Part shown: piece after piece, positions 10,515 to 45,775 of the stretch
Numbering within the stretch: the first letter of the stretch is position 1
Layout of the letters: every line of letters begins with the position of its first letter
From: Candidatus Forterrea multitransposorum CG_2015-17_Forterrea_25_41
GTDB lineage: Archaea > Iainarchaeota > Iainarchaeia > Iainarchaeales > CSSED10-239
Direction: 5' to 3'
NCBI GenBank assembly: GCA_009392915.1
Contig: CP045477.1
Coordinates: 352,001 to 416,000 of the forward strand
DNA length: 64,000 nt
Position numbers and translations under genes: made by a program
Notes under the pieces: model-generated
What the model was told of the DNA's origin: nothing
The model's database searches: none
Seen by the model: only the letters and a program-made list of their open reading frames with translations

Positions 10515-12941
10515 TTAAATATTTTCTCTAATTTTTGATTTTGAAAAACCAGCATCTAAAAGATCTTCTTCTGAATAACCAGCAAGTCTAAGCTCTTCTA
10601 AACTATAACCTACACTTCTAAGTTCTCTTGCAGAAAAATGTAATTCTTTAAGTTCTTTGGCACCATAATGAATAACTTTCATAAGTCTAATTCCAACACC
10701 TAAATCAAAAACATCTTTTGCAGGATAACCAGCATAATGAAGTTGTCTTGCAGTATATCCTACATCATAAAGATCTTTTGCAGAAAATCCACCTTCTTTC
10801 ATAGAAGATGCATCATAACCTGCAATTTTTAAATCTCTTGCAGAATAATATGGATTTAAATCTTTTGGATAAAATCCAGCTTGAGACATTTCTTTTGCAG
10901 TATATCCTGCATTATAAAATTCAGAAATTGGTATACCTAAACCATAAAGTTCTTTTGCTTTATAACCTGCAAATCTAATAGTTGAAACATCAAAACCAGA
11001 ATCATACATTTCTTTTGCAGTATATCCTGCAGCATGATATTGTTTTGCAGTATATCCAATACTTAAAAGTTCTTTTGCACTAAATCCAGCTCTTCTAAGT
11101 TCAAGTAAAGAAAAGCCTTCTAAATGAAGTTCTAAAGCAGTAAATCCTGCAAGTCTTAAATCAATTAAATTATAACCATTTGCAAGGAAATCTTTTATTG
11201 TACATCCAAGCATATGAACTTCTCTTAAAGAATAACCACCTTCAAGTAAATCAAAACATGTACATCCAGCATTCTTTAAATCAATTGCTTTGTATCCAGC
11301 TTCTTTTAAATCTTTAATAGTATAACCTAATTTTAAAAGTTCAGGTATACTGTACTTTAAATATTTAAGTTCTTCTAAAGATACAACTTTATCATCTGAA
11401 AGAACAACAGGTTCAATAGGTTTTAAAGCAATTAACTCTGAAATATCAAATCCTGCTTCTTTAAGTTCATCAATTGTAATTCCATTTTCATATAATGGTT
11501 TTGCAGAAATTCCTTCTTTTCTAAATCTTACAAGAGGAATCTCTTTTAGAAGTTCTTTATAAGTAAAACCAATATCTAAAAGTTCTTTAATTGTAAATTT
11601 TTCTGCAACAATTTCTTCTAAAGAATAAACATCTTTAATTTCTTTTAAAGTATATCCTTTTTTTAGTAATTGTTTTAATGTAAATATTTTTGAAAGATCT
11701 TTAATTGTAAAACCACAATCTAATATTTCTTTAAGTTTATAACCAGCAGAAACAATTTCTTTTAAAGAATAACCAGCTTTTTTAAGATCTTTCGCAGGAT
11801 ATGCATATTCTTTTAATTTTTTAGCTCTAAATTTTGCATCTCTTAAATCTTTTGCATCAAATTCTGCAAAAAGAATTGAATGTTGATCAAATTTAACTTT
11901 CTTTAAATCACTTGGAGTATATCCTAAGTTTTTAAGATCTTTTGTTGAAATTCCTGCTTTCTTTAATTCTTTTAAAGAAAAATTTACATCATTAATTTCT
12001 TTAGGAGTATATTGTAGATAATAAAGATCTTTTGCAGTGAAGCCAAGTGACTTTAATGCTTTTGCATTATATTTATGTTCTTTTAAAACTTCAGCTGTTA
12101 AGCCATATGAAAATATTTCTTTTGAAGACATTTTTTTTAAAGTTTGATCATTAATAACTATTTTTACAACTTCTTCTTTTTTATTTTCAACTTTTTCTTT
12201 TTTTGCTTTTTCTTTTTTAATTTTATCTGTTTTTTCTTTTTTGCTTTTTACTTTTTCTTTTGGAAATTTATTTAAAGGTTTTATTTTTTCTTCTTTAATT
12301 TTAATTCCAATTTCTTTATCTGTAAAACCTGCTTTTCTTAACTGATCAATACTATATTTTGCTTTTTTAAGTTCTAAAATAGTATATGTACCTTGATATA
12401 GTTCTTTAGCAGTTAAACCAATATTTTTTAATTGTGATGCATCAAAACCTGCTCTCTTTAAATCTTTAACACTAAAACCAACTTCTAAAAGTTGTCTTGC
12501 AGTAAATTTAACTTTTTTTAATTCTTTTGAAGTATAACCTACAGATTTTAAATCTTTTAAATTAATTCCAAGTTCTTTTAAATCTTTTAAAGGAAATCCT
12601 GCAACTTGTAAATCTTTAACTGAATAACCTACAGAATAAAGTTCTTTTGCAGTAAAATCTAAATTTCTTAGATTTTGAGAACTAAAACCAACTTCTTTTA
12701 ATTTCTTAACAGTAAAGCCTGCTTTTTCTAAAGTTCTAGCCTTAAAGCCTAATCCCTTTAAAACAGTATAATTTGCTTTTACTTCATTTAATTTTTTTGC
12801 AAATTCTGTTTTATTTATTTTAAATTTTGAAAAAATAGAAACTGTTATTGGAGAAATAATATATCTTGAAGGAGAACTGATTTGTTTCTCTAAATATTCA
12901 TTTAATTCTTTTTTTGTTAAATTTTTTAAGTCAATAGCCAT
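10515..12941 (-). CDS. 808-aa protein built from about 68 tandem 10-residue repeats (consensus G-[FY]-[TS]-x-K-[DE]-L-[KR]-x-[AV]), with an internal Lys-rich linker; unknown function
   Basis: Read from the translation: strict 10-aa periodicity over residues 60-210 and 270-800, and a 30-nt DNA periodicity (recurrent tcttttgcag.atatcc units). There is no signal peptide. Confidence 0.7.
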   Translation of the reverse strand: MAIDLKNLTKKELNEYLEKQISSPSRYIISPITVSIFSKFKINKTEFAKKLNEVKANYTVLKGLGFKARTLEKAGFTVKKLKEVGFSSQNLRNLDFTAKELYSVGYSVKDLQVAGFPLKDLKELGINLKDLKSVGYTSKELKKVKFTARQLLEVGFSVKDLKRAGFDASQLKNIGLTAKELYQGTYTILELKKAKYSIDQLRKAGFTDKEIGIKIKEEKIKPLNKFPKEKVKSKKEKTDKIKKEKAKKEKVENKKEEVVKIVINDQTLKKMSSKEIFSYGLTAEVLKEHKYNAKALKSLGFTAKDLYYLQYTPKEINDVNFSLKELKKAGISTKDLKNLGYTPSDLKKVKFDQHSILFAEFDAKDLRDAKFRAKKLKEYAYPAKDLKKAGYSLKEIVSAGYKLKEILDCGFTIKDLSKIFTLKQLLKKGYTLKEIKDVYSLEEIVAEKFTIKELLDIGFTYKELLKEIPLVRFRKEGISAKPLYENGITIDELKEAGFDISELIALKPIEPVVLSDDKVVSLEELKYLKYSIPELLKLGYTIKDLKEAGYKAIDLKNAGCTCFDLLEGGYSLREVHMLGCTIKDFLANGYNLIDLRLAGFTALELHLEGFSLLELRRAGFSAKELLSIGYTAKQYHAAGYTAKEMYDSGFDVSTIRFAGYKAKELYGLGIPISEFYNAGYTAKEMSQAGFYPKDLNPYYSARDLKIAGYDASSMKEGGFSAKDLYDVGYTARQLHYAGYPAKDVFDLGVGIRLMKVIHYGAKELKELHFSARELRSVGYSLEELRLAGYSEEDLLDAGFSKSKIRENI
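10545..12765 (-). repeat. intragenic 30-nt tandem repeats encoding the 10-residue protein repeats
   Basis: Recurrent near-identical 30-mers on the minus strand, e.g. at 10724, 10768, 10895, 11015, 11041 and 11075. Confidence 0.6.
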
Positions 12942-19513: not shown

Positions 19514-19644
19514 TATCCCTCCTCCCAGATTTGAACTGGGGATCTTCCGGTTACCGCCATTAAAAGAGATTAAAAATCTCTTTAATTTTAGTATAATCTA
19601 AAATGTCTACAGCCGGACGCACTAGGCCGCTATGCTAAGGAGGG
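19514..19644 (-). tRNA. tRNA-Tyr (GTA) with about 57-nt intron at the canonical 37/38 position; no encoded CCA
   Basis: Hand-folded. Acceptor CCCTCCT/AGGAGGG. Anticodon stem TCCGG/CCGGA with loop CTGTAGA. T-arm CCCAG-TTCAAAT-CTGGG. The intron contains a hairpin AAAGAGATTTTTAATCTCTTT. Confidence 0.85.
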
Positions 19645-19688
19645 ACTATTTACTATATATTATATTAGCAAAACATATTTAAATAAAA

Positions 19689-24200: not shown

Positions 24201-24776
24201 ATGATAAAGAAGTATGATAATTTAGCTTTATTAATACACCCAATGTATTCAATAGTTACTGACATATATAGAAATACAACAGGTATGGGTAAAATCACTT
24301 TTAAAGAAATGGAAAGTGAATATGTAAAGAGATTAAATGTCTATAAAGAAAGTATTTCTTCTTTTAAAAACACAAATACTCTTTTTGTACTTGTTGAACC
24401 TACAAAAGATTTAATGAATTTTAAATTAGAATTTTTCTATAAGCATATGATGGAAGATTTATATGTTTTTGCAAAAAAAGAACTTGGTCTTTCTTTTAGA
24501 AAAATAACAGATCTTAATTATCTTTCAGATATTAAAAAAATAACACCTACTCTTAAAAAAAATATTGGAGTTTTTTCTTTTGGAGAGCATAGAGAAGTTT
24601 GTGTTAAAACATTTAATGAATATACAATTAATTTTTTAAAAGAAAATAATTTTAAACCTATTTCTAAAGGAATACAAATAAAATTTTCATTTGATATTGA
24701 AAATAAAAGATTAAGACAAGTTCAAAAAGAAAAGCCTAAACCAAAGCCAAAAAAAATAATAAAAAAAAGAAGATAA
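24201..24776 (+). CDS. hypothetical protein with Lys/Pro-rich C-terminal tail
   Basis: ORF track. Ends KEKPKPKPKKIIKKRR. Transcribed divergently from 23151-24092. Confidence 0.45.
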   Translation: MIKKYDNLALLIHPMYSIVTDIYRNTTGMGKITFKEMESEYVKRLNVYKESISSFKNTNTLFVLVEPTKDLMNFKLEFFYKHMMEDLYVFAKKELGLSFRKITDLNYLSDIKKITPTLKKNIGVFSFGEHREVCVKTFNEYTINFLKENNFKPISKGIQIKFSFDIENKRLRQVQKEKPKPKPKKIIKKRR

Positions 24777-24781
24777 GAAAT

Positions 24782-24937
24782 TTAAGCCATTAATATTTCT
24801 GTATGACCAAAACATCCACAAGAGTCAGAACCGCAATCTCCTGCTTGTAAAATATCTGTATGTGTGAAACATCCACAAGAGTCTGAACCGCAATCTCCTG
24901 CTTGTAAAGTATTTAAATTAAAATTTTCTGTATTCAT
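24782..24937 (-). CDS. 51-aa Cys-rich peptide with a perfect tandem duplication of a 20-aa unit (LQAGDCGSDSCGCF[TG]HT[DE]IL)
   Basis: Hand translation gives MNTENFNLNTLQAGDCGSDSCGCFTHTDILQAGDCGSDSCGCFGHTEILMA. The SD-like AAGAGGT lies 8 nt upstream with a TATA-like box further upstream. Not in the ORF track because it is under 60 aa. Confidence 0.45.
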   Translation of the reverse strand: MNTENFNLNTLQAGDCGSDSCGCFTHTDILQAGDCGSDSCGCFGHTEILMA

Positions 24938-24997
24938 ATTTTATAACCTCTTTATATATTTTAATTATTAAAAAAAATAGTTTTTAAAAATAATATT

Positions 24998-25025
24998 CGC
25001 CTGCAAGCTTGGCGGAAAGCTTAAG
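24998..25025 (-). promoter_or_regulatory. conserved 28-nt tRNA 3' trailer hairpin (CTTAAGCTTTCCGCCAAGCTTGCAGGCG) directly after tRNA-Ala
   Basis: Identical, apart from one base, to the trailer after tRNA-Gly at 30261-30288. Contains two palindromic AAGCTT hexamers that can form a 6-bp stem. Confidence 0.5.
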
Positions 25026-25098
25026 TGGACTCTGCGAGATTCGAACTCGCGGCCTCGTCCTTGCAAGGGACGCGCTCTACCAGCTGAGCTAAGAGCCC
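25026..25098 (-). tRNA. tRNA-Ala (TGC)
   Basis: Hand-folded. G3:U70 identity pair. Anticodon loop CTTGCAA. T-arm CGAGTTCGAATCTCG. No encoded CCA. Confidence 0.9.
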
Positions 25099-25265
25099 TA
25101 ATAACTATTGAACCAATATATTATATATATTATAGAACAAAAATATTTATAAACACATCAGATTTATTTTTAATCAAAATTATAAAAATAAAATTATGGA
25201 CTGATAAATATACTTTTAAAAAAATATTATTAAATAAAAAAAGAAAAATTTCTTATAATTAAAGA

Positions 25266-25300
25266 AATTTTGATGTGTGGAAGAAAAACAAACACTTCAG
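25266..25300 (-). promoter_or_regulatory. 3' half of 16S rRNA processing stem (UCUUCCACACAUC...)
   Basis: Complementary to GAUGUGGAAGA upstream of the 16S 5' end (26918-26928), with a 2-nt bulge. This is the typical archaeal pre-16S bulge-helix-bulge (BHB) / processing helix context. Confidence 0.45.
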
Positions 25301-25364
25301 GTTAGGTAAGTTTTTAAAACTTTTAAAATAACAACTAACATTTAGTCATTATATAAAATAGGAG

Positions 25365-26854
25365 GTGATCCGTCCGCAGGTTCCCCTACGGACACCTTGT
25401 TACAACTTAGTCTACCTCGCGAAATATAGAATAACTTTATCCTTTAGTAGAGTAAAGTTCATCAACACTCCACTCGGTTGGCTTGATGGGCGGTGTGTGC
25501 AAGGCGCAGGGACATATTCACCGCGTGATAGTGACACGCGATTACTGGGGATTCCAGCTTCATGAGGGTGAGTTGCAACCCTCAATCCGGACTTAGACTA
25601 AGTTTTTGAGATTGCCACCCCTTTTCAGGTTAGATACTCTTTGTCTTAGCCATTGTATGCCGCGTGTTGCCCAGAACATTCACGCTATACAGACCTACCT
25701 TCGCCCACTCCTTCCTCATTGTTACCAATGCAGTCCTATTAGAGTGCCTTCTTTTGCAAGCAAAAAAAGTAGCAACTAATAGCATGGGTCTCGCCCGTTA
25801 CCTGAGTTAACAGGAAGCTTCACAGTACGAGCTGACGATGGCCATACAGCAGTTCTCAGCGCATCAGGTAACCCCTTCAGAGTGACCATCATATTGCTGT
25901 CAGCCCTGGTAAAATATCTGGCGTTTCATCCAATTAAACCGCAGCATCCACCCCTTGTAGTGCACCCCCGCCAATTCCATTAAGTTTCAGTCTTGCGACC
26001 ATACTTCCCAGGCGGTGAATTTAATGGTTTCCCTTCGGCCCTGAGCTAACTCGTAGTTAACCCAACACCTAATTCACATCGTTTACGGCTGGGACTAACC
26101 GGGTATCTAATCCGGGTTGCGCCCCCAGCTTTCGTATCTCACTGTCGAATCCGTACTCGTTAAGCGCCTTCGCCACAGGTGGTCTTTTTAGTATCTTAAG
26201 ATTCTACTCCTACTCTAAAAATACCCTTAACGTCTTCCGGTTCCTAGTCATGCCAGTATCTTTTGCAATTCAACTAGTTAGGCTAGCTGCTTTCACAAAA
26301 GACTTAACAAACCAGCTACACACGCTTTAAGCCAAATAATGCTGGATACCACTTGGGGATTACGTATTACCGCGGCGGCTGGCACGCATATTGCCCTCCC
26401 CTTATTCACATAGTTATTCACACTATATAAAAGCTTACATAGTAAGCACTTGGAATCTCTTTATCACGATTTCTCGCATTGTAAAAGTTTCGTAACTGCT
26501 GCACCCCGTAGGGCTAGGGACATTATCTCAGTTCCCTTCTCCGGGCTACCTCTCTCAAGGCCCGTACAGATCTTCGGCTTGGTAGGCAGTTACCCTACCA
26601 ACAACCTAATCTGGCGCAGTCCCATCCTTTCGCGCCAAAGAAGCATGATTCTTTGACCTTTAAAATAGTAATCATTCCAGATTTACTTTTTTATAGAGCA
26701 TTATACTCAGTTTCCCGAGTTTAACTCTTCAAAAGGGTAGGTTGACCACGTGTTACTGAGCCGTTCGCCAAAACCTCTCATAGCTGAGGCTTTAAGACTT
26801 GCATGTCTTAGTCAGATTCCAATAGCAGTATCCACCAGCAGGATCAGCTGGAAT
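25365..26854 (-). rRNA. 16S rRNA (archaeal)
   Basis: 5' ATTCCAGCTGATCCTGCTGG... and 3' ...GTAACAAGGTGTCCGTAGGGGAACCTGCGGACGGATCACCTCCT read on the minus strand. Universal segments (GTGCCAGCCGCCGCGGTAA etc.) present. About 1490 nt. Confidence 0.9.
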
Positions 26855-26904
26855 TGGATAATAAATTTGCACACTTTTCTAACACAGAGTGTTTTTGCTA
26901 AAAA

Positions 26905-26935
26905 TGTTTTCGTCTTATCTTCCACATCAGACTCA
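26905..26935 (-). promoter_or_regulatory. 5' half of 16S rRNA processing stem (GAUGUGGAAGA)
   Basis: Pairs with 25272-25284. Confidence 0.45.
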
Positions 26936-27080
26936 AAATAACTTGAGACCTCATAGTTTCCTAATAAATTAGGATCAAATGAGTTACTTTGCTAAATAGT
27001 TTAGCGCAGTAAAATAATACTAGTAGAGGTAAGTTTTTAAAGCTATTGTTTTTTACTTAGTAAAATTAGATTTTTTGAAT

Positions 27081-27100
27081 AACTTATATAAATACTTTTC
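27081..27100 (-). promoter_or_regulatory. putative rRNA promoter (BRE + TATA: GAAAAGTATTTATATAAG on the minus strand)
   Basis: Archaeal BRE/TATA-like box about 200 nt upstream of the mature 16S 5' end. Confidence 0.35.
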
Positions 27101-27126
27101 GCTTTAATCTGTAAAAAAAGTATTTT

Positions 27127-27585
27127 TTATTTTAAATCATTATTTTTTAAAATTTTTTTCAAGATTTTATCTTTATTTTTTTGATCAATAGGATGTCCAA
27201 CTAATGTTGTAATATAACCAGGATATTTTTCAAAATATACCCCACCAGATAATTCTCCAAACTTTTTATCATTAATTTTATGCATTGGATAAAGTTTAGT
27301 ATGTATATGATCTACTCCTTGTCCTTCAAAAACCATTGCAACTCTTTTAACCTTAAGACCTTTTTCTAAAATCTTAGCAACTTTTTTTGAAACTAACAAT
27401 AGTCTAGTATATACTTCTTCTGGAAGATTAAAAACATAAGAAGAATAATGTTTTTTTGTTAAGACTAAAGTTTGACCTTCAGTATTAGGATTACCATCTA
27501 ATATTGCAATAAAATCTTTATCTTCATAAACAATAGAAGCTTGCAGTTTTTTATCTGCAATCTTACAAAAAACACATTCTTTCAT
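27127..27585 (-). CDS. HIT-family (histidine triad) nucleotide hydrolase
   Basis: CVFCKI N-terminus and HIHTKLYP histidine triad. Confidence 0.75.
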   Translation of the reverse strand: MKECVFCKIADKKLQASIVYEDKDFIAILDGNPNTEGQTLVLTKKHYSSYVFNLPEEVYTRLLLVSKKVAKILEKGLKVKRVAMVFEGQGVDHIHTKLYPMHKINDKKFGELSGGVYFEKYPGYITTLVGHPIDQKNKDKILKKILKNNDLK

Positions 27586-27631
27586 AAATTAAAAAAATAG
27601 TAAGAGAGAAAAGTAAAATGCATCACTTTAT

Positions 27632-27763
27632 CTATGATGCAGCTCTTTTTCTTAAGTATCTTCTTTCTCTTCTTGTTTCTCTCATTTTTTTCTTTTTCCA
27701 TTTCCATCTTTGTCTGGATTTTGTTTTCTTAAATCTACTTGAATCTTTTTTTCTAGTACCCAT
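27632..27763 (-). CDS. rpl41e: ribosomal protein L41e (43 aa, not in the ORF track)
   Basis: Hand translation gives MGTRKKDSSRFKKTKSRQRWKWKKKKMRETRRERRYLRKRAAS. Extremely basic, with the RWKWKKK core characteristic of archaeal/eukaryotic L41e. Confidence 0.6.
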   Translation of the reverse strand: MGTRKKDSSRFKKTKSRQRWKWKKKKMRETRRERRYLRKRAAS

Positions 27764-27818
27764 GAATTTTCGCCTTTAATTTTAATATTAATTTTTTTTC
27801 CTTAACATATAAAGAAAA

Positions 27819-27892
27819 TGCTCTCGCCGGGATTCGAACCCGAGTCTCTGGCTTGAAAGGCCAGAATGATTACCGGACTACACCACAAGAGC
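27819..27892 (-). tRNA. tRNA-Glu (TTC)
   Basis: Hand-folded. Acceptor GCTCTTG/CGAGAGC. Anticodon stem-loop CTGGC-CTTTCAA-GCCAG. T-arm TCGGGTTCGAATCCCGG. Confidence 0.9.
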
Positions 27893-28109
27893 ATAAAGTC
27901 TTTTAGATTGATTTATTTTATAAAACTACAATAAAATAAGAAATATTATTTTGTAGTTTATAATATAAATAAGTAACGATTTATTTATATACTGTTTGTT
28001 TTTTTACTTCAGAGAAAAAACTCTTGTTTTAAATACCTTTTGTATGTTAAATATATAACATAATATATTAATATTTATAACAATTTAAAAATTATTAAGG
28101 TGAAACAAA

Positions 28110-28262
28110 ATGGAAACAATTGCAAAAGAAAGAAGATTAAAAAACATATGGGTTTGTATGTCATGTAATAATACAATGAGAAGTCCAAAGAAAATGGAAT
28201 ATTGTAATAAATGTGGTGCCATAAAAATCAGAGCTAAAAAGAAAGGAAAGAATGTAAAGTAA
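28110..28262 (+). CDS. rpl40e: ribosomal protein L40e (50 aa, zinc ribbon; not in the ORF track)
   Basis: Hand translation gives METIAKERRLKNIWVCMSCNNTMRSPKKMEYCNKCGAIKIRAKKKGKNVK, with the C-x2-C...C-x2-C pattern of L40e. Preceded by TTAAGGTGAAACAAA, the same SD context as lysS. Confidence 0.65.
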   Translation: METIAKERRLKNIWVCMSCNNTMRSPKKMEYCNKCGAIKIRAKKKGKNVK

Positions 28263-28264
28263 TT

Positions 28265-29062
28265 TTATTTTCTTTTAATTGGTCTAAAAATTTTTTTAGA
28301 CTCTCTACTTTTTATAAAAACATTTTTTTTAGAATCAAGAAGTCTTTTCTTCTTGATCTCAAAATTTTTTTCTATTTTTTTCTTAATATCATTTTCAATT
28401 ATATTTTCTAAAGAAATATTTTCTAACTTCAAGCCACCTTTAAGACCAGCCTGTATATATTGTCTTAATTGTCTATAATATTGAGAATTATCTTTATTTG
28501 TTTTAAAAGGAAGTTCTAAAAGAATATTTATTTTATTTTTATCAGCATATTTTTTAAATAAAGAAACAACTTTAACTCTCCAATTTTCATTAAGTTCTTT
28601 ATTTAATTTATCTAAATAAATTCTATTTTTTTCTAATAATTCAAGTTTATTATTATTTTTATTACTACCAATATATCCTTGAATATTACTTATTCTTAAA
28701 GTTATTTTATTATTCTTATTAATAGTAAAATAAATACCAAAAGTTGAAATTACATTCTTATTATAAGAAATTTGATATTCAATAATTGATTCAGGATGTA
28801 AATTTTCAAAAGGATTTACACGACTAACTTTAAATTTGTCATTTTTACCTAATTGTAAATTTTTTAAATTATTTTTTTCTAAAAATTGTAAATTTAATTT
28901 AAATGAATTTAAAATTTCTTCTTTAGAATGATTAGTATGCATAAGATCTATTAAATCAGATAATAAATGAACTTCTTTTGCATTTAAAGAACGTCCAACA
29001 TTATTTACAACATACTTTTTAATATCTAATTCATGCATCATAATAAATCTCTTTAAAACCAT
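28265..29062 (-). CDS. hypothetical protein (overlaps the fen start by 10 nt)
   Basis: ORF track; no motif recognised. Confidence 0.4.
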   Translation of the reverse strand: MVLKRFIMMHELDIKKYVVNNVGRSLNAKEVHLLSDLIDLMHTNHSKEEILNSFKLNLQFLEKNNLKNLQLGKNDKFKVSRVNPFENLHPESIIEYQISYNKNVISTFGIYFTINKNNKITLRISNIQGYIGSNKNNNKLELLEKNRIYLDKLNKELNENWRVKVVSLFKKYADKNKINILLELPFKTNKDNSQYYRQLRQYIQAGLKGGLKLENISLENIIENDIKKKIEKNFEIKKKRLLDSKKNVFIKSRESKKIFRPIKRK

Positions 29063-30096
29063 TTATCAATAGTTTTTTGTTTATTTGAATTAGTTCTAGC
29101 TGTAATAAATTTATCTAAACTATTTACAACTCTTTCTTGAGAAAAATTAAACCTATCTATTAATATATTTTCAATTTTATTACGATCAAACTCAGATTTA
29201 CTTATTTCTGGATTTTTTGAAATTAATGGATTTAAAAATATATTTTCAATTTCTTTATAATCAAAATTAACTACTTTATTTTTTTCTTTTAAAACTTTTT
29301 CAATACTTTCAAAACTATTATTTTCTAATACTAGTTTTAAAGCAGTTTTTGGGCCAATACCTTCAACTTTATCATTAAAATCAGTTCCAATAAGCATTGA
29401 AAGATAAATTAATTTTTCTCTTGAAATATTTAATTTTTCTAAAGTTTCTTTAAGATATATTATTTCAGGATTAATATCAACATAAACATTCTTTGAAGGA
29501 ATTTTTTTCTTTCTTGAAACAGTTAAATTTCTAACAAGATTTGGAGAACCAAATAATAAACAATCAAAATCTTGAGAAACAGTAAAATCTAATATATTTT
29601 CTTTTGTCATGTAAGAAATTTGAGCTTCAGCTTCAGAAGGAGCATTAATTATAGAGATACCCATTGCTTTTAATAGATCTTTTGATTCTTCTATTATCTT
29701 TTCATCAATTGAAGTTATTCTTTTTGAAAACTTATTCATATCTTCAAGATCTCCTCTTAAAACAGCATCTTTAAAATGTTCTTTAGCTATTTCTTTTCTA
29801 GATTTTCTTTCATCTTGTGTTTTTTGCTTTAAATCTATACTTTTTCCATCATATACAAAAAAAACATCAATGTCATTAGATAAAAGGTTAAGCATTCTAT
29901 AAAAAAGACCATTTAAATGGCTAGTAATATCACCATTTTCGTTCTTTAAAGGTTCTCCATCTACACCTCTAATTGTAGTTAAGAACTGATATAGAATATT
30001 ATAAGCATCAAAACCAAATTTTTTATGTTTATGTGTATGATTAAACTCAAATTTCTGTTTTGATTCTTCTATTAGTTTTCCAATTGCAACTCCCAT
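29053..30096 (-). CDS. fen: flap endonuclease 1 (FEN-1)
   Basis: MGVAIGKLI N-terminus, XPG-N/XPG-I pattern and H3TH region (GIGPKTALKLV). Confidence 0.8.
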   Translation of the reverse strand: MGVAIGKLIEESKQKFEFNHTHKHKKFGFDAYNILYQFLTTIRGVDGEPLKNENGDITSHLNGLFYRMLNLLSNDIDVFFVYDGKSIDLKQKTQDERKSRKEIAKEHFKDAVLRGDLEDMNKFSKRITSIDEKIIEESKDLLKAMGISIINAPSEAEAQISYMTKENILDFTVSQDFDCLLFGSPNLVRNLTVSRKKKIPSKNVYVDINPEIIYLKETLEKLNISREKLIYLSMLIGTDFNDKVEGIGPKTALKLVLENNSFESIEKVLKEKNKVVNFDYKEIENIFLNPLISKNPEISKSEFDRNKIENILIDRFNFSQERVVNSLDKFITARTNSNKQKTIDKWF

Positions 30097-30188
30097 ACTA
30101 TATTATTAAATAGATAAAGTATATAAACCTTTATCTGCATATAATATTTATAATGATAAAGTTATTTTTATCATTCTTTAAAAAAAAA

Positions 30189-30260
30189 GCACTCGTAGTA
30201 TAGTGGTTAGTATGTGAGCCTTCCAAGCTTAGGACTCGGGTTCGAATCCCGACGAGTGCA
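30189..30260 (+). tRNA. tRNA-Gly (TCC)
   Basis: Hand-folded. Acceptor GCACTCG/CGAGTGC. Anticodon stem-loop TGAGC-CTTCCAA-GCTTA. T-arm TCGGGTTCGAATCCCGA. A TATA-like TTTTTATC sits at about -25. Confidence 0.85.
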
Positions 30261-30288
30261 CTTAAGCTTTTCGCCAAGCTTGCAGGCG
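30261..30288 (+). promoter_or_regulatory. conserved 28-nt tRNA 3' trailer hairpin (CTTAAGCTTTTCGCCAAGCTTGCAGGCG)
   Basis: 27/28 identical to the tRNA-Ala trailer at 24998-25025. Confidence 0.5.
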
Positions 30289-30446
30289 TTGTTGACAAGC
30301 AAAGATGCTTAGTTAACAAGTATTATTTTATAATAATTAATAAGCATAAATTTAATTCTTTTTCTTCAACAAATATTTTTTATATCTAAAACAACTATTT
30401 ATAAATATAATACTTTAGTAAATATTTATATAAAAGATGATTAAAT

Positions 30447-31052
30447 ATGGCTAAAAGAAATTATGCATCAGAATTAATTAAAAAAATTAATTCAGGAAAT
30501 AAAAAACCAAAAGAACCTACTTCTTATTTCTCAATGAATGATAAAAACAGAATTGAAGAAATAGAGTATAAAAAAAAGAAACTTCAAAAAGAAAGAGAAA
30601 AACTAATTTTAGAATCTAAAAAAATAGCAAGAGAAAATAAAGAAAATGAAGCAATTGATTTAACTAAAGAATTATCAAAATATAAAAATATATTTCATCT
30701 TACAGAAAAATCTTCAAAAGAAGAAATAAATAAAATTATTAGAGATGAATTAAAAAATATAATCAGTAATAAAAAGAAAAATAAAGAAGACATTGTAAAA
30801 CTTGAAATTGAAGAAAGTTTTCTTAAAACAATGAACCAAATTTATAATAAATCAAAAAATAGAGACGATATAAAAGTATATATTGATTTTGTAAAATATG
30901 TTGATCAAATCTCAAAAATACAATTTGGAAGAGATGCATATAAACAAAATCTTTTTAAAAATCAAGCTTTAAAAGAAATTAATTCAAAAATATCAAATTC
31001 TAATGACATACATCAAACTTTTAGAGAAATATTTCTAAGTCTTAGTAAATAA
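30447..31052 (+). CDS. hypothetical Lys/Glu-rich coiled-coil protein
   Basis: ORF track; charged low-complexity sequence. Confidence 0.4.
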   Translation: MAKRNYASELIKKINSGNKKPKEPTSYFSMNDKNRIEEIEYKKKKLQKEREKLILESKKIARENKENEAIDLTKELSKYKNIFHLTEKSSKEEINKIIRDELKNIISNKKKNKEDIVKLEIEESFLKTMNQIYNKSKNRDDIKVYIDFVKYVDQISKIQFGRDAYKQNLFKNQALKEINSKISNSNDIHQTFREIFLSLSK

Positions 31053-33380: not shown

Positions 33381-35027
33381 TTATCTTTTTTTAACATATT
33401 TTTTATTTTTTACAATTTTTTTTTGTTTCTTAATATCTTTCTTTACTTTTTCTCTAAACTTTGTATCATCTTTTTTTCCATCATTAAAAGAGGATCTAGG
33501 ACCATCTCTCTTTCTATCACCATCAAAGGAAGATCTTGGTTTATGTTTGTCAAAAGAAGGTCTAGGACCATCTCTTTTTCTATCTCCATCAGTATGTGGT
33601 CTAGGTTTATGTTTATCAAAAGAAGGTCTAGGACCATCTCTTTTTCTATCACCATCAAAGGAAGGTCTAGGACCATCTCTTTTTCTATCATCATGGAATC
33701 TATTTTTAGATCTTTGATTTTCAAAAGAGCTTTCAGAAACTGCTCTTTTTCTATCTCTAAAACTTGTTTCATTTCTTGTTGTTCTTGGATTTTGAGAACC
33801 TCTTGATTTTCTTAAAAAACCTACTTGTTTATTAAAAAAATCTTTTGCTCTAATATCTGATTTATTATTTGTATTTTTTTCAACATCTCTAGTCCTATCA
33901 AAAGAAACAACTTTAACTTCTGGAACATCAATTTTTTTAATTGAAAAACCAAATCTTTTACACATTTTTATAAATGTAGGTTCATCTCTATAATCAATAA
34001 AAGTTATTGCTTTTCCTTCTTGACCAGCTCTTGCAGTTCTTCCTATCCTATGAACATACTGAGTATCATCTTTTGGAAGATCATAATTATAAATATATTC
34101 AAGATTATCAATATGTATACCTCTTGCAGAAACATCACTTGATATTAAAACTGCAGTTTTATGAGTATGATATTTATCTATAGTGTGTGTTCTTTTTCTT
34201 TGTTCAAGTCCACCATGAAGTTTAAATGCTTCAACTCCATTTTTAATTAAATTATTATAAATTACATCAACTTCTCTTCTAGTATTTGAAAATACAATTG
34301 ATTTTTTAGGATTTTCTTTAATTAAATGTAAAAGAAGAGAAAATTTTTGATTTGATTTAACAACATAATATTCTTGTAAAAGTTTTGAAGGATCAACTTT
34401 TGATTCAACAGAAACTCTTTCTGCATTTGGAATATATTTTCTTTCAATATTTGAAACATCTTTTGTAATTGTTGCAGAAAACATTAAAGTTTGTCTATGT
34501 CGTGGAATTTTATCAATAATTTTTGAAATATCTTCTGCAAAACCCATATCACACATTCTGTCAGCTTCATCTAATATTAAAAATTTAACTCCCTTTAGAT
34601 TTAAATTACCTCTATTCATTTGATCGATTATTCTTCCTGGAGTTCCAATTACTATGTCTGAAAATCTAATATCTTTTGCTTGTTGAGAAACAGATTCTCC
34701 TCCGTAAACAGCACATGAAATTAATTTTTTAACTTCAGACATTTTTTTAACTTCTTTAAAAACTTGCAAAGCAAGTTCTCTTGTTGGAACAATAATTAAA
34801 GCTTGAACTTTCTTTTCTTTATTAACATTTGGTAAAATACCTGAAAGAAAAGCTACTGTTTTTCCTGTTCCTGTTGCAGATTCTGCAATTATATTTTTAC
34901 CTTCTAAGATTAAAGGTATTGTTTTAATTTGTATTTCAGTAGGTTTTAAAATACCCATATTTGTTACTGCTTGTAATATAGTTTTATCTTTAATTAAACT
35001 ATTAAAATTTTCATTAGAATTAGTCAT
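33381..35027 (-). CDS. DEAD-box ATP-dependent RNA helicase with C-terminal R/D/G-rich tandem repeats
   Basis: Q-motif, AESATGTGKT (motif I), DEAD, SAT and HRIGRTAR present. The C-terminus carries 5 copies of DGDRKRDGPRPSFDKHKPR. Confidence 0.85.
   Translation of the reverse strand: MTNSNENFNSLIKDKTILQAVTNMGILKPTEIQIKTIPLILEGKNIIAESATGTGKTVAFLSGILPNVNKEKKVQALIIVPTRELALQVFKEVKKMSEVKKLISCAVYGGESVSQQAKDIRFSDIVIGTPGRIIDQMNRGNLNLKGVKFLILDEADRMCDMGFAEDISKIIDKIPRHRQTLMFSATITKDVSNIERKYIPNAERVSVESKVDPSKLLQEYYVVKSNQKFSLLLHLIKENPKKSIVFSNTRREVDVIYNNLIKNGVEAFKLHGGLEQRKRTHTIDKYHTHKTAVLISSDVSARGIHIDNLEYIYNYDLPKDDTQYVHRIGRTARAGQEGKAITFIDYRDEPTFIKMCKRFGFSIKKIDVPEVKVVSFDRTRDVEKNTNNKSDIRAKDFFNKQVGFLRKSRGSQNPRTTRNETSFRDRKRAVSESSFENQRSKNRFHDDRKRDGPRPSFDGDRKRDGPRPSFDKHKPRPHTDGDRKRDGPRPSFDKHKPRSSFDGDRKRDGPRSSFNDGKKDDTKFREKVKKDIKKQKKIVKNKKYVKKR
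33470..33695 (-). repeat. intragenic tandem repeats (about 57-nt unit) encoding the helicase RDGPRPSFD tail
   Basis: Repeated ggaccatctctttttctatcaccatcaaaggaagg units. They create spurious overlapping ORFs on both strands (33372-33806 and 33443-33772). Confidence 0.7.
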
Positions 35028-40710: not shown

Positions 40711-41364
40711 ATGATACCAAAAATAACACCAAAAATATTTCCAAAATCAAAGATTGGAAGAAATAAGTTTAATAAAACATTAAAAAACGATCCTTCAGTT
40801 AAAAGAACTGAAATTCAACTTCTATCTATCCCTGGAAAAGGAATACATGATGTTTCTTCAAATAGACGAAAATATAGAGTTGGAAGAGATACTTTAAAGT
40901 TTGAAAAAATACTTAATGAAAGAGTAAAAGAATCTTTTAGAAAAAAATTAAGAAACTTAGAAAATAGAAGTCAACTTTTACACACACATATAACAAAAAG
41001 AAAATCTAAGAGTACTAAAGAAGAATTTGGAATGGCTCTTCCATCAAAATCAGATATTATTTCTTTTATGGAAGATAGAAGAAAAACTATTAAATATCAA
41101 ATAATTTCTGTAATTGACCCTAAGATTAGAAAACCTATAGGATATACAACTATTAAGATTAACACTTTAAAAGCAACACCTAAACAATTTATTGAAAGAA
41201 TAGATGGGTTTATTACAAAAGAAACTATTAAAAATGCTGAATATAAAAAACATATTTTTGAAATGATGGAAAGTTTAGGTATGGAGATTTATTTCACTCC
41301 TGAAGATGGTTATTCCTTAAATAGAAATTTTAATTATGTGAGGAAAAATGAAGCCAAGAAATAG
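40711..41364 (+). CDS. hypothetical protein, family A copy 1 (N-terminal PKITPKIFPK...; GYTTIKIN; C-terminal EIYFTPEDGYSL)
   Basis: Paralogous to the next gene, which overlaps its stop by 17 nt. Confidence 0.45.
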   Translation: MIPKITPKIFPKSKIGRNKFNKTLKNDPSVKRTEIQLLSIPGKGIHDVSSNRRKYRVGRDTLKFEKILNERVKESFRKKLRNLENRSQLLHTHITKRKSKSTKEEFGMALPSKSDIISFMEDRRKTIKYQIISVIDPKIRKPIGYTTIKINTLKATPKQFIERIDGFITKETIKNAEYKKHIFEMMESLGMEIYFTPEDGYSLNRNFNYVRKNEAKK

Positions 41365-42043
41365 TCCAAGAATAACTCCAAAAGTAAAAGCTTTGCCAAA
41401 GATAGGAAAAGTAAAATTTTCAAAAGAAATCAAAACTCTTGAAATTAATAAACTAAATAAAGTTGCTTTCTATAAAGCTCCTGGAGAAAAACCTGTAAGC
41501 ATTTCAGGAGATAGATTGAATTCTTTTGCAGTTATTGATTCTGCAAAGTTTGATGCTATTTTTAAAAATATTAATAAAAAAAGAACAGATACTGGAAAAA
41601 AATCTATAGATAAAGAAAAGGGAAGTCTTTTTTATTTTAAACTACAAGACCCTAAACTTAAAGGAAAATATAACAATGGAAATGCAATTCCTGATCTTTT
41701 TTCACTTATTGATTCAATGTTTAAATATCCTAAAACAAGACATGGTTATGATGTTATGGCTGTTGTAAGTCCAGAGAAAAAAGTCTTAGGATATACCACT
41801 GTTAAAATAAATCATGCATTTATGAAAAAAATACTTCCAGAAATTGAAAATAAAACTATTAAAAATAGAAATGATTTTACAAGAAAAATAGTACATCTGC
41901 TTTCGAATATGGAAGGAAATATTAAAAATAAAGAAACTGTTTTTAATGTTTTAAAAGTTTTAGAAAAGATTGGCTTTGAGGTTTATTTTACTCCTGAAAA
42001 AGGATATAAGCTTGATAAGGAATATAGATTTATTAAAGAATAA
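41348..42043 (+). CDS. hypothetical protein, family A copy 2 (GYTTVKIN; EVYFTPEKGYKL)
   Basis: Collinear with the N-terminal, central and C-terminal motifs of copy 1. Confidence 0.45.
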   Translation: MKPRNSPRITPKVKALPKIGKVKFSKEIKTLEINKLNKVAFYKAPGEKPVSISGDRLNSFAVIDSAKFDAIFKNINKKRTDTGKKSIDKEKGSLFYFKLQDPKLKGKYNNGNAIPDLFSLIDSMFKYPKTRHGYDVMAVVSPEKKVLGYTTVKINHAFMKKILPEIENKTIKNRNDFTRKIVHLLSNMEGNIKNKETVFNVLKVLEKIGFEVYFTPEKGYKLDKEYRFIKE

Positions 42044-42046
42044 TAA

Positions 42047-42808
42047 TTATCTCCAAAAAATAAATTTTTTATCAGAGTATTTTGAATATAATTCTTTTGT
42101 CATAAATTTTTCTTTTTCAGTTAAGCTAGATGTCATGAAATTAATATTAAAAATTTCCTCAAAACCTTGAACAATTGCAGAAATAATTTTTTCTTTTGGA
42201 ATTGTTTTATAATCATATAAACCACAAACAAGGTCTTTTGCAGATTTTACTTTTTTTTCAAGAAGTTTTTTATCGTCTATTTTTAAATATTTAAACATTA
42301 TTTCACATTCAGGTTTTAAAAGAATAGTACCATGATGCAAAATAACATTATCAACTCTTGTTTGTGCATTTCCAGAAATTTTTTTATTATTAAGTAAAAT
42401 ATCATTTACAGGTTTAAAAGTAGTTTCAAATCCAAGTTTTCTTAGTCCAGCTATAATACCACTGCATATTAAAGCATAAGATTTTTCAACATCTTTAGGT
42501 ATACAAAAATCATCTTCTCTAATAATTAAACTATAATTTATTTCATAAAGAGGAGACTTATAAACAGCCCCTCCTCCTGTAATTCTTCTAAAAATTTCAA
42601 TATTATTTTTACTACATTCTTCAAGATTTAATTCTTTTTTAGCTTCTTGAAAAAAGCCTAAAGAAACAGCAGGTTTGTTCCAAGAATAAAACCTAAGTGT
42701 TGGAAGAGAAGATTTATCTCTAACAGAAGACATAATAGCTTCTTCTGATGCCATTTTATAATAAGAATCTTCTTTATCTTCAAGAGAGATTAACCTCCAT
42801 TTTTTCAT
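42047..42808 (-). CDS. lplA: lipoate-protein ligase A (catalytic domain)
   Basis: LRFYSWNKPAVSLGFFQ, RRITGGGAVYK and ILLNNKKISGNAQ motifs of the BPL_LplA_LipB domain. Confidence 0.75.
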   Translation of the reverse strand: MKKWRLISLEDKEDSYYKMASEEAIMSSVRDKSSLPTLRFYSWNKPAVSLGFFQEAKKELNLEECSKNNIEIFRRITGGGAVYKSPLYEINYSLIIREDDFCIPKDVEKSYALICSGIIAGLRKLGFETTFKPVNDILLNNKKISGNAQTRVDNVILHHGTILLKPECEIMFKYLKIDDKKLLEKKVKSAKDLVCGLYDYKTIPKEKIISAIVQGFEEIFNINFMTSSLTEKEKFMTKELYSKYSDKKFIFWR

Positions 42809-45352: not shown

Positions 45353-45592
45353 AAAAAACAGTTACTATATATTGAAACAAGATTTAAAAATAAAACTATT
45401 AAAAATAAAAATTACTTGACAAGAAAAATAATAAACCTAATTTTAAATATTAAAGAAAATATAAATAAAAAAAGAAGAAATGTTTCTAATGTTTTAAAAA
45501 TTTTAGAAAAGCTTGGTTTTAAAGTTTATTTAACTCCTGAAAGAAGATATAAGCTTGATAAGGATTATAATTATGTAATAGACGGAAAATAA
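45353..45592 (+). pseudogene. decayed C-terminal fragment of a family-A gene (third copy of the 40711-42043 paralogs)
   Basis: The frame reads ...NKTIKNKNYLTRKIINLILNIKENINKKRRNVSNVLKILEKLGFKVYLTPERRYKLDKDYNYVIDGK* with no start codon and an in-frame TAA at 45350. Clear nucleotide similarity to 41838-42043. Confidence 0.5.
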
Positions 45593-45728
45593 TTTTTATA
45601 AGTATAATTTAATCTTTTTTAAAATAATTGAACATAAGGTTAAAATAATTCGTAATTATCAATACATATAATATATAAAAATATTTTTAAATATTAGCAA
45701 TAACAGTACCAACAAAATACATTTATTA

Positions 45729-45775
45729 GGTATCTTTGTTGCCAAAAGCTTCTGGCGGGAATTGAACCTAAAGGG
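45729..45775 (-). other. degenerate tRNA 3'-end fragment (T-loop GGTTCAATTCCCGCCAG) fused to a decayed copy of the conserved tRNA trailer (AAGCTTTTGGC)
   Basis: Aligns with the tRNA-Gly T-arm and trailer GGTTCGAATCCCGACGAG...AAGCTTTTCGCC, but cannot fold as a tRNA. Confidence 0.3.

Follow-up and report, generated by a model that had tools for sequence, protein, structure and literature searches.

A lineage-specific hairpin element abuts the 3′ ends of tRNA-Ala and tRNA-Gly in an Iainarchaeota-like DPANN archaeon

Introduction

What is a 28-nt sequence, almost identical in its two copies, doing directly behind the genes for tRNA-Ala and tRNA-Gly, on opposite strands of an AT-rich archaeal genome? 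We addressed this question in a 64-kb stretch of DNA (hereafter, the window), for which a preliminary description had proposed a hairpin trailer common to these two tRNAs. The window is archaeal, has a GC content of 21-34% (~24% away from the rRNA region), and matches a section of a 663-kb contig from a JGI metagenome (3300007985, Ga0100381_1000002) without a difference. Among named organisms, those with the FEN1 protein closest to its own are ‘Candidatus Iainarchaeum’ / Diapherotrites MAGs (DPANN archaea), and the host is an Iainarchaeota-like DPANN archaeon of 24% GC. By comparing the tRNA 3′ ends of this window with those of its relatives, we find that the 28-mer is a real, lineage-specific element of tRNA trailers, and we weigh below what such an element may do.

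Results

Two tRNA genes share a 28-nt trailer

The RNA genes of the window and the features that follow them are listed here, in plain order of discussion:

25360-26854, minus: full-length archaeal 16S rRNA gene (1354 bits)
25026-25098, minus: tRNA-Ala(UGC), CCA not encoded (ARAGORN; Rfam 71.7 bits)
24998-25025, minus: hairpin module, Ala copy, CTTAAGCTTTCCGCCAAGCTTGCAGGCG (covariance model, 42.7 bits)
24970-24997, minus: AT-rich tail of the tRNA-Ala trailer, with T5 at 24986-24990 and T8 at 24970-24977
30189-30260, plus: tRNA-Gly(UCC), CCA not encoded (ARAGORN; Rfam 67.6 bits)
30261-30288, plus: hairpin module, Gly copy, CTTAAGCTTTTCGCCAAGCTTGCAGGCG (covariance model, 44.8 bits)
30289-30320, plus: further hairpin, TTGTTGACAAGCAAAGATGCTTAGTTAACAAG, of greater stability and adjoining the Gly module
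27819-27893, minus: tRNA-Glu(UUC) (ARAGORN, Rfam)
19515-19645, minus: tRNA-Tyr with a 55-nt intron (labeled Asn(GUU) by ARAGORN; the anticodon loop reads GUA)

Both copies begin at the base right after the discriminator A73 of their tRNA, at exactly the coordinates described earlier, and follow the consensus CTTAAGCTTT(C/T)CGCCAAGCTTGCAGGCG, with 27 of 28 positions identical and loop position 11 as the sole difference. No match to the 28-mer arose in 100 shuffles (chance expectation 0), the 64-kb window contains no further match with up to three mismatches, and a search of the same window for other hairpins or sub-motifs yielded no additional family members. The element stands out by its base composition, with 54-57% GC versus 24% for the genome. 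It is absent after tRNA-Glu and tRNA-Tyr, where T-runs directly follow the tRNA, again as the preliminary description had it.

The previously proposed stem of two AAGCTT hexamers around a 6-nt loop is indeed the predicted minimum free energy fold, and it grows to a 9-pair hairpin with one bulged C (−6 kcal/mol). In the Ala copy, positions 3-9 pair with positions 16-22 (stem S1), the loop reads UCCGCC, and the tail CAGGCG. The hairpin is weak (−3 to −8 kcal/mol across copies) and no more stable than composition-matched shuffles (z = −0.3). The loop (YYCGCC) and the tail (CAGGCG) hardly vary across copies and are complementary to each other, which provides for an alternative stem S2 (CGCC/GGCG) that is nearly isoenergetic with S1 (−4.3 versus −5.3 kcal/mol). 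An H-type pseudoknot that would hold S1 and S2 together would appear sterically strained, with a 2-nt loop over a 7-bp stem.

The position of the T-tracts is informative. In the window, the nearest T5 lies 8 nt past the end of the 28-mer, and all hairpin-bearing trailers that we compared contain at most T4 before or within the module, with T-tracts after it. As archaeal RNA polymerase stops at oligo-T, the T5 and T8 behind the Ala module are presumed to be the oligo-T termination signals of the tRNA-Ala transcript, and since no T5 separates the tRNA end from the module, the module would lie within the primary transcript. With T-tracts downstream of the element, and not before it, the element is most naturally read as acting in the 3′ trailer, in processing or termination.

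The stronger hairpin that follows the Gly module (fold of 30261-30320, −18.4 kcal/mol, z = −2.1) occurs only in this species and is absent from the related loci L046 and L058; it probably lies outside the conserved module. The tRNA-Gly 3′ flank as a whole (30289-30446, plus strand) is an indel hot spot: a HIT-family paralog sits between tRNA-Gly and a 201-aa gene in L046 (9324-9728), L048, L055, L058, and L060, and is missing in L057 and in this species, which has the extra hairpin there instead.

The element is confined to one clade, where it comes and goes

We used FEN1, which adjoins tRNA-Gly, as an anchor to collect syntenic loci from nine relatives, and compared the 3′ ends of four tRNAs per genome. 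The sequences found after tRNA-Gly and tRNA-Ala are given below, with percentages denoting FEN1 identity to the window:

Window: after tRNA-Gly, CTTAAGCTTTTCGCCAAGCTTGCAGGCG; after tRNA-Ala, CTTAAGCTTTCCGCCAAGCTTGCAGGCG
L052 (97%; ~93% nucleotide identity): after tRNA-Gly, identical to the window; after tRNA-Ala, CTTCAACTTTTCGCCAAGTTGACAGGCG
L046 (79%): after tRNA-Gly, CATAAACTTCTCGCCAAGTTTACAGACA; after tRNA-Ala, CTTAAGCTGGTTTCGGTCAGCTTGCACCC
L058 (76%): after tRNA-Gly, TTAAACTTCTCGCCAAGTTTACAGGCG three times in tandem, the two 18-nt spacers being identical; tRNA-Ala off contig
L060 (73%): after tRNA-Gly, no hairpin; after tRNA-Ala, four tandem units, consensus AACTTCTCGCCAAGTTGACAGGCGTTTTTAGTTGTATATTTTAAA, period 45, 99% matches
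L055 (83%), L057 (76%), L059 (75%): after tRNA-Gly, no hairpin, T-run starting between +2 and +7; tRNA-Ala off contig
L048/L049 (74%), L050/L051 (68%): no hairpin after tRNA-Gly or tRNA-Ala; T-rich from +2

In these loci, the element occurs only after tRNA-Ala or tRNA-Gly and always in the sense of the tRNA, with the first copy starting right after the tRNA in five genomes. It is absent from five relatives. In a neighbor-joining tree of FEN1, all its carriers fall into one clade, whose outgroup (L050) lacks it. Within this clade, the distribution at tRNA-Gly is patchy: L058 carries an array there and L057 does not, at identities of 89% in FEN1 and 92% in the promoter region of tRNA-Gly. Since such close relatives do without the element, it must be dispensable.

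The gene order tRNA-Gly, FEN1, tRNA-Glu, 16S, tRNA-Ala, Cys-rich ORF is conserved in all loci. The suggestion of tRNA genes mobilized together was not supported: relatives without the element show this same order from tRNA-Gly to tRNA-Ala, and the element thus comes and goes independently of the tRNA genes. Its extent also had to be revised. Although the 28-nt unit does follow the tRNA as described, its first three bases (CTT) also open the hairpin-less trailers (CTC in L059); they belong to the ancestral trailer, and the inserted module effectively starts at position 4.

Both tandem arrays, after tRNA-Gly in L058 and after tRNA-Ala in L060, share a 45-nt period, and their spacers (18 and 21 nt, respectively) are identical within each array. 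They are hence 45-nt tandem duplications, not CRISPR arrays with unique spacers. In L060, every unit is followed by T5 (GGCG, then TTTTT). The array units show no sign of coding, with stop codons in all three sense frames; an antisense frame that stays open over 15 codons was judged a chance occurrence, as it is without a start codon and runs into the tRNA.

A third, decayed copy with a tRNA 3′ fragment had been proposed at 45729-45775, beside a pseudogene. This claim fell: the best Smith-Waterman score of the site to a tRNA 3′ end plus trailer is 17, where unrelated sites of the window reach 18-20, and a covariance model of the element reports nothing there even at E ≤ 10. There is no tRNA fragment at 45.7 kb, where spacer DNA separates a gene fragment (45416-45592) from a convergent gene. 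The fragment itself, a 58-aa ORF and the ‘pseudogene’ in question, was left by a duplication in which 45384-45610 is 77-80% identical to 41844-42067, the 3′ end of a 231-aa gene (41348-42043). That the unit can duplicate and decay nevertheless stands: the tandem arrays of the relatives and a possible remnant in L046 speak for it, and the 45.7-kb site no longer does. The L046 sequence in question, AAATTAACAGGCG, lies 45 nt downstream of tRNA-Ala and may, at low confidence, be what is left of a second unit.

Compensatory changes preserve the stem

The hairpin variants of the relatives allowed us to ask whether pairing is retained as the sequence changes. Relative to the window Ala copy, the pair A4-U21 is replaced by C-G in the Ala copies of L052 and L060, and G6-C19 by A-U in the same two copies and in the Gly copies of L046 and L058, while U9-A16 is replaced by G-C in the Ala copy of L046, which has a different, 8-nt loop. 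In addition, U3-G22 changed on one side to U-A in the Ala copy of L052, with pairing preserved. Across five variants, 95% of the stem cells are paired, and 88.9% across ten distinct variants aligned to the model, with slid-partner controls reaching 17-54%. Five cells in the ten variants changed on both sides, a number that was reached by none of 500 shuffles. The notion that the element is a genuine hairpin associated with tRNA 3′ ends is thereby borne out. We caution that template switching in replication can yield apparently compensatory changes of inverted repeats in one step (PMC8794818), so that covariation is here a weaker proof of selection than usual.

The two stems fare differently. 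S2 is 90% paired yet essentially invariant; the internal units of the L060 array have lost most of S1 (−0.5 kcal/mol) and kept S2, and the L046 copies have kept S1 and not S2.

Hairpins are better conserved than their flanks, and one appears to be recently overwritten

Between the Ala copies of L052 and L060, whose FEN1 sequences are 74% identical, the hairpin is 96% identical, compared with 69% for the 60 nt upstream and 49% for the 60 nt downstream. The Gly copies of L046 and L058 likewise show 89% identity in the hairpin versus 62% and 61% in the 60 nt upstream and downstream, where unrelated AT-rich sequence scores ~45-60% in the same comparison. Hairpins that are kept so far better than their flanks suggest that purifying selection acts on the hairpin sequence.

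The near identity of the two window copies has a different origin. The window Ala copy is of the Gly type, with 1/28 differences from its own Gly copy and 6/28 from the Ala copy of L052, a sibling of 93% ANI that carries CTTCAACTTTTCGCCAAGTTGACAGGCG at the same position. A ~41-nt indel separates the two strains directly beside the hairpin, with the upstream 60 nt being 98% identical. From these alignments, the window Ala hairpin appears to have been recently replaced by the Gly type, and its 27/28 identity would hence reflect a recent event rather than ancient conservation. The Gly copy is identical in the sister strain (L052/L031). The unit thus behaves as a small DNA repeat, with tandem duplication at a 45-nt period, clean loss, and copying between loci 5 kb apart.

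Searches beyond the locus return only the sister strain

An exact 20-nt core of the element, AAGCTTTNCGCCAAGCTTGC, gave 18 matches in 185,579 species genomes other than that of the source, none adjoining a tRNA; 17 lie in bacterial contigs and one in an unrelated Woesearchaeota contig of 47% GC. In JGI metagenomes, only one of 25 core matches was real, namely, the tRNA-Gly trailer of the sister strain (L031). A scan of IMG/VR with a degenerate 28-mer returned no match. Rfam 15, run on the whole window at the gathering threshold, reported only the 16S rRNA and three tRNAs, and at E ≤ 10 the Ala trailer and the L060 array drew weak chance matches (≤25 bits versus gathering scores of 47-119). Dispersed copies besides the two tRNA sites were found neither in the 64 kb nor in ~120 kb of the relatives’ loci, and the next best covariance-model scores were ≤15 bits versus 30-45 bits for true copies. 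A full-text literature search found no description of such an element.

Genes around the modules

The 16S rRNA gene is followed after 260 nt by tRNA-Ala, and the 64-kb window contains no 23S gene. The 16S gene has a processing stem of its own, formed by its flanks (GATGTGGAAGA... with ...TCTTCCACACATC), and is set apart from tRNA-Ala by T-runs, so that this ‘spacer’ tRNA-Ala is probably under its own promoter. Given this stem and these T-runs, a role of the 28-mer in rRNA processing was rejected. The 28-mer has no complementarity to 16S rRNA or to the tRNA leaders. Nor do leader and trailer form a bulge-helix-bulge substrate, i.e., pair as a 3-nt bulge, a 4-bp helix, and a 3-nt bulge: the leaders are A/T-only and hold no complement to the trailer, and the hairpin is local.

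Directly downstream of the tRNA-Ala module lies a 51-aa Cys-rich ORF (24782-24937, minus strand) with a GAGGT Shine-Dalgarno sequence and an internal 57-nt tandem duplication, in which the motif LQAGDCGSDSCGCF.H occurs twice. It is conserved in L046, L052, and L060, has no Pfam match, and could encode a metal-binding peptide or a RiPP-like precursor. Downstream of tRNA-Glu, a very basic 43-aa ORF (MGTRKKDSSRFKKTKSRQRWKWKKKKMRETRRERRYLRKRAAS; 27640-27780, minus strand) is reminiscent of a small ribosomal protein, eL41 for instance; a conserved AAAGGCGAAAA stands before it in place of a GGAGG-type Shine-Dalgarno sequence, and a hairpin plus T-run terminator stands at its 3′ side (27619-27641). 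Pfam searches on the neighboring unannotated ORFs gave nothing useful.

Repeat variation is also seen elsewhere in the window. A long gene at 10560-12690 (minus strand) consists of at least 22 copies of 30-nt (10-residue) periodic repeats, and the DEAD-box helicase at 33381-35027 (minus strand) ends in a C-terminal array of 66-nt repeats (DGDRKRDGPRPSF...) whose copy number varies by strain, yielding proteins of 548, 526, and 513 aa. The intron of tRNA-Tyr differs in length among relatives as well (55, 48, and 30 nt); the ortholog in L050, with the 30-nt intron, was called as Tyr.

Discussion

A proposed structured module of the pre-tRNA trailer

We put roughly even odds on the reading that the 28-mer is a cis-acting, structured 3′-trailer module of pre-tRNAs, which belongs to one genus-level, Iainarchaeota-like DPANN clade and whose function we infer. 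Polymerase that stops at the T-tracts behind the module would transcribe it as the first ~28-45 nt of the trailer, and the transcript would fold into a short hairpin starting 3 nt past the discriminator, a fold for which the covariation speaks. An alternative or pseudoknotted stem could form between loop YYCGCC and tail CAGGCG. With no CCA encoded in either tRNA gene, the expected tRNase Z cut lies directly behind A73 and would release the module. The hairpin, the conserved tail, and the U-tract together may then act in 3′-end formation, or insulate the tRNA from co-directional downstream genes. On the DNA level, the unit would spread by local duplication and conversion.

Several points stand against the cis-acting trailer reading. 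Its transcription, its release by tRNase Z, and its effect on termination are all predicted from sequence, the hairpin is weak, and its geometry is not that of a canonical intrinsic terminator. Close relatives lack it, L060 and L046 have kept different stems, and template switching can imitate compensatory change (PMC8794818). No requirement for hairpins is known in archaeal termination. What the element has in common with bacterial intrinsic and archaeal oligo-T terminators is a GC-containing stem-loop that closes a short, highly expressed RNA gene, with T-tracts behind it. Intrinsic terminators, however, have a G+C-rich stem (at least three G-C pairs) with a T-run within 0-2 nt, whereas S1 has two G-C pairs and the T-run lies beyond a tail of 6 nt or more; only the candidate stem S2 in L060 directly precedes T5. 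A terminator scan of 24500-30800 flagged six terminator-like sites, with neither trailer hairpin among them. Terminator hairpins are, moreover, normally not conserved in sequence, unlike the loop and tail of this element. The archaeal oligo-T signal (at least five Ts on the non-template strand, downstream) is present after the Ala module and after each L060 unit, as a feature of the flank, and the hairpin itself falls outside that known signal.

A possible selfish or neutral repeat

The element may instead be a selfish or neutral, GC-rich palindromic mini-repeat that sits in the T-run after tRNAs without any RNA function, and that DNA-level processes alone (quasi-palindrome template switching, slippage, and gene conversion) create, homogenize, and multiply. 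We consider this explanation unlikely. In its favor, the element is patchily distributed on a shallow tree, with at least four gains or losses at tRNA-Gly, and the whole array differs between L058 and L057 as a clean indel; units occur in tandem arrays of three and four, the Ala copy appears to have been overwritten in this strain, and the GC content is far above that of the genome. The one-step template switching mentioned above (PMC8794818) could account for the ‘compensatory’ pairs, and high transcription stimulates quasi-palindrome mutation (PMC3820800). The insertion sites weigh on the other side: just two of them are seen, where the element keeps a single orientation and a fixed register to the tRNA end, with no dispersed copy in the sequence searched. 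Furthermore, the most conserved parts are the non-palindromic ones, loop and tail, and orthologous copies remain 86-96% identical where flanks are near saturation, which is not expected of neutral DNA. The Pfam annotations of the neighboring genes include no transposase.

Known elements of this kind offer a useful comparison. REP/BIME elements of bacteria and the GC clusters of yeast mitochondria are dispersed in tens to hundreds of copies. Like these, the element is a short, GC-rich, imperfect palindrome in intergenic DNA downstream of genes, sometimes in tandem and varying among close relatives; unlike these, it is seen, in the 64 kb and the ~120 kb of relatives’ loci, at two tRNA 3′-end sites in fixed orientation, and no RAYT-like transposase was seen.

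A possible small RNA riding on the tRNA

By analogy with the tRNA-linked hairpin units of viruses, the element might also be co-transcribed with its tRNA as a small-RNA unit or as a riboregulator, bistable or pseudoknotted. The tRNA would serve as the handle for processing, and tRNase Z would free hairpin RNAs of ~30-45 nt with a 5′-monophosphate, as single units or from arrays of three to four, whose conserved loop YYCGCC and tail CAGGCG could act in trans by recognizing a target RNA or protein. Alternatively, a toggle between S1 and S2 might set the read-through from the tRNA into the co-directional genes of the Cys-rich peptide and the HIT protein downstream. We regard both forms as improbable. 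The hairpin does abut the tRNA on the same strand in all cases, and a loop and tail that are single-stranded and conserved would fit recognition surfaces, as the 3-4-unit arrays of relatives would fit a multiplied small RNA. Its stems, however, are just 5-9 bp, those of the internal L060 units are degraded, no complementary target was found in the window, 16S rRNA included, and close relatives dispense with the element. If this explanation is true, the units would parallel in archaea the tRNA-hairpin units of viruses and would represent a new class of tRNA-primed regulatory RNA in DPANN archaea with reduced genomes.

The precedents are the TMERs of murine gammaherpesvirus 68 (MHV68) and the tRNA-snoRNA or tRNA-C/D sRNA dicistrons, in which tRNase Z releases a tRNA-linked hairpin RNA. 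The layout is shared, in that one or several hairpins stand right behind a tRNA and on its strand, and the 3′ processing site of the tRNA marks where the two would separate; such an architecture is present here, and the release of an RNA is predicted. Unlike in these systems, the stems are far shorter than those of pre-miRNAs, C/D or H/ACA boxes are absent, the host is a DPANN archaeon, and the processing is a prediction.

A possible recombination or protein-binding site

Very improbable, finally, is a DNA-level protein-binding or recombination site of the dif or att type, used by a tyrosine recombinase, in which the two mutually inverted window copies would bracket the 5.3-kb segment from tRNA-Ala via 16S to tRNA-Gly: although the length of 28 bp and the inverted arms around a 6-bp center recall the 11-6-11 layout of dif, the site of XerA (11-bp imperfect inverted arms and a 6-bp spacer, in a single copy per chromosome and conserved between species; PMC2958812), the element occurs at two sites per genome or in arrays of three to four, is linked to tRNAs and not to the replication terminus near which dif lies, has covarying arms of 6-9 bp that differ between sites within one genome (L052, L046) and a spacer of 6 or 8 nt, so that one protein is unlikely to read all copies, and none of the ten genomes shows the segment inverted. 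An att site of a tRNA-targeting integrase would be a direct repeat that includes the 3′ part of the tRNA, with an integrase or mobile element between the repeats. Here, the repeat starts after the discriminator, holds no tRNA sequence, and is inverted between copies; the neighbors are conserved housekeeping genes without a listed integrase domain, no integrase was called in any locus, and IMG/VR gave no match.

What the trailer module may mean

Returning to the cis-acting trailer module, its mode of action would most resemble that of a terminator- or REP-type hairpin in the 3′ flank, and its architecture that of tRNase Z-processed tRNA-hairpin units; it probably belongs to none of these classes. 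The comparison also carries a general caution, in that identity within a genome (here 27/28) is not a measure of age, as it would stem here from a recent conversion. Archaeal tRNA 3′ trailers are normally seen as unconstrained T-rich spacers. The short element described here combines a conservation almost as strong as that of a tRNA and the covariation of a structured RNA with the arrays, conversion, and loss of a repeat. If it is selfish, a genome of 0.7 Mb would contain a compact palindromic element that is specific for tRNA ends. If it acts in 3′-end formation, some archaea would add RNA structure to the pathway of oligo-T termination and tRNase Z processing, and in either case the module offers a defined, mutable 28-nt substrate for studying archaeal termination and the action of tRNase Z on structured trailers.
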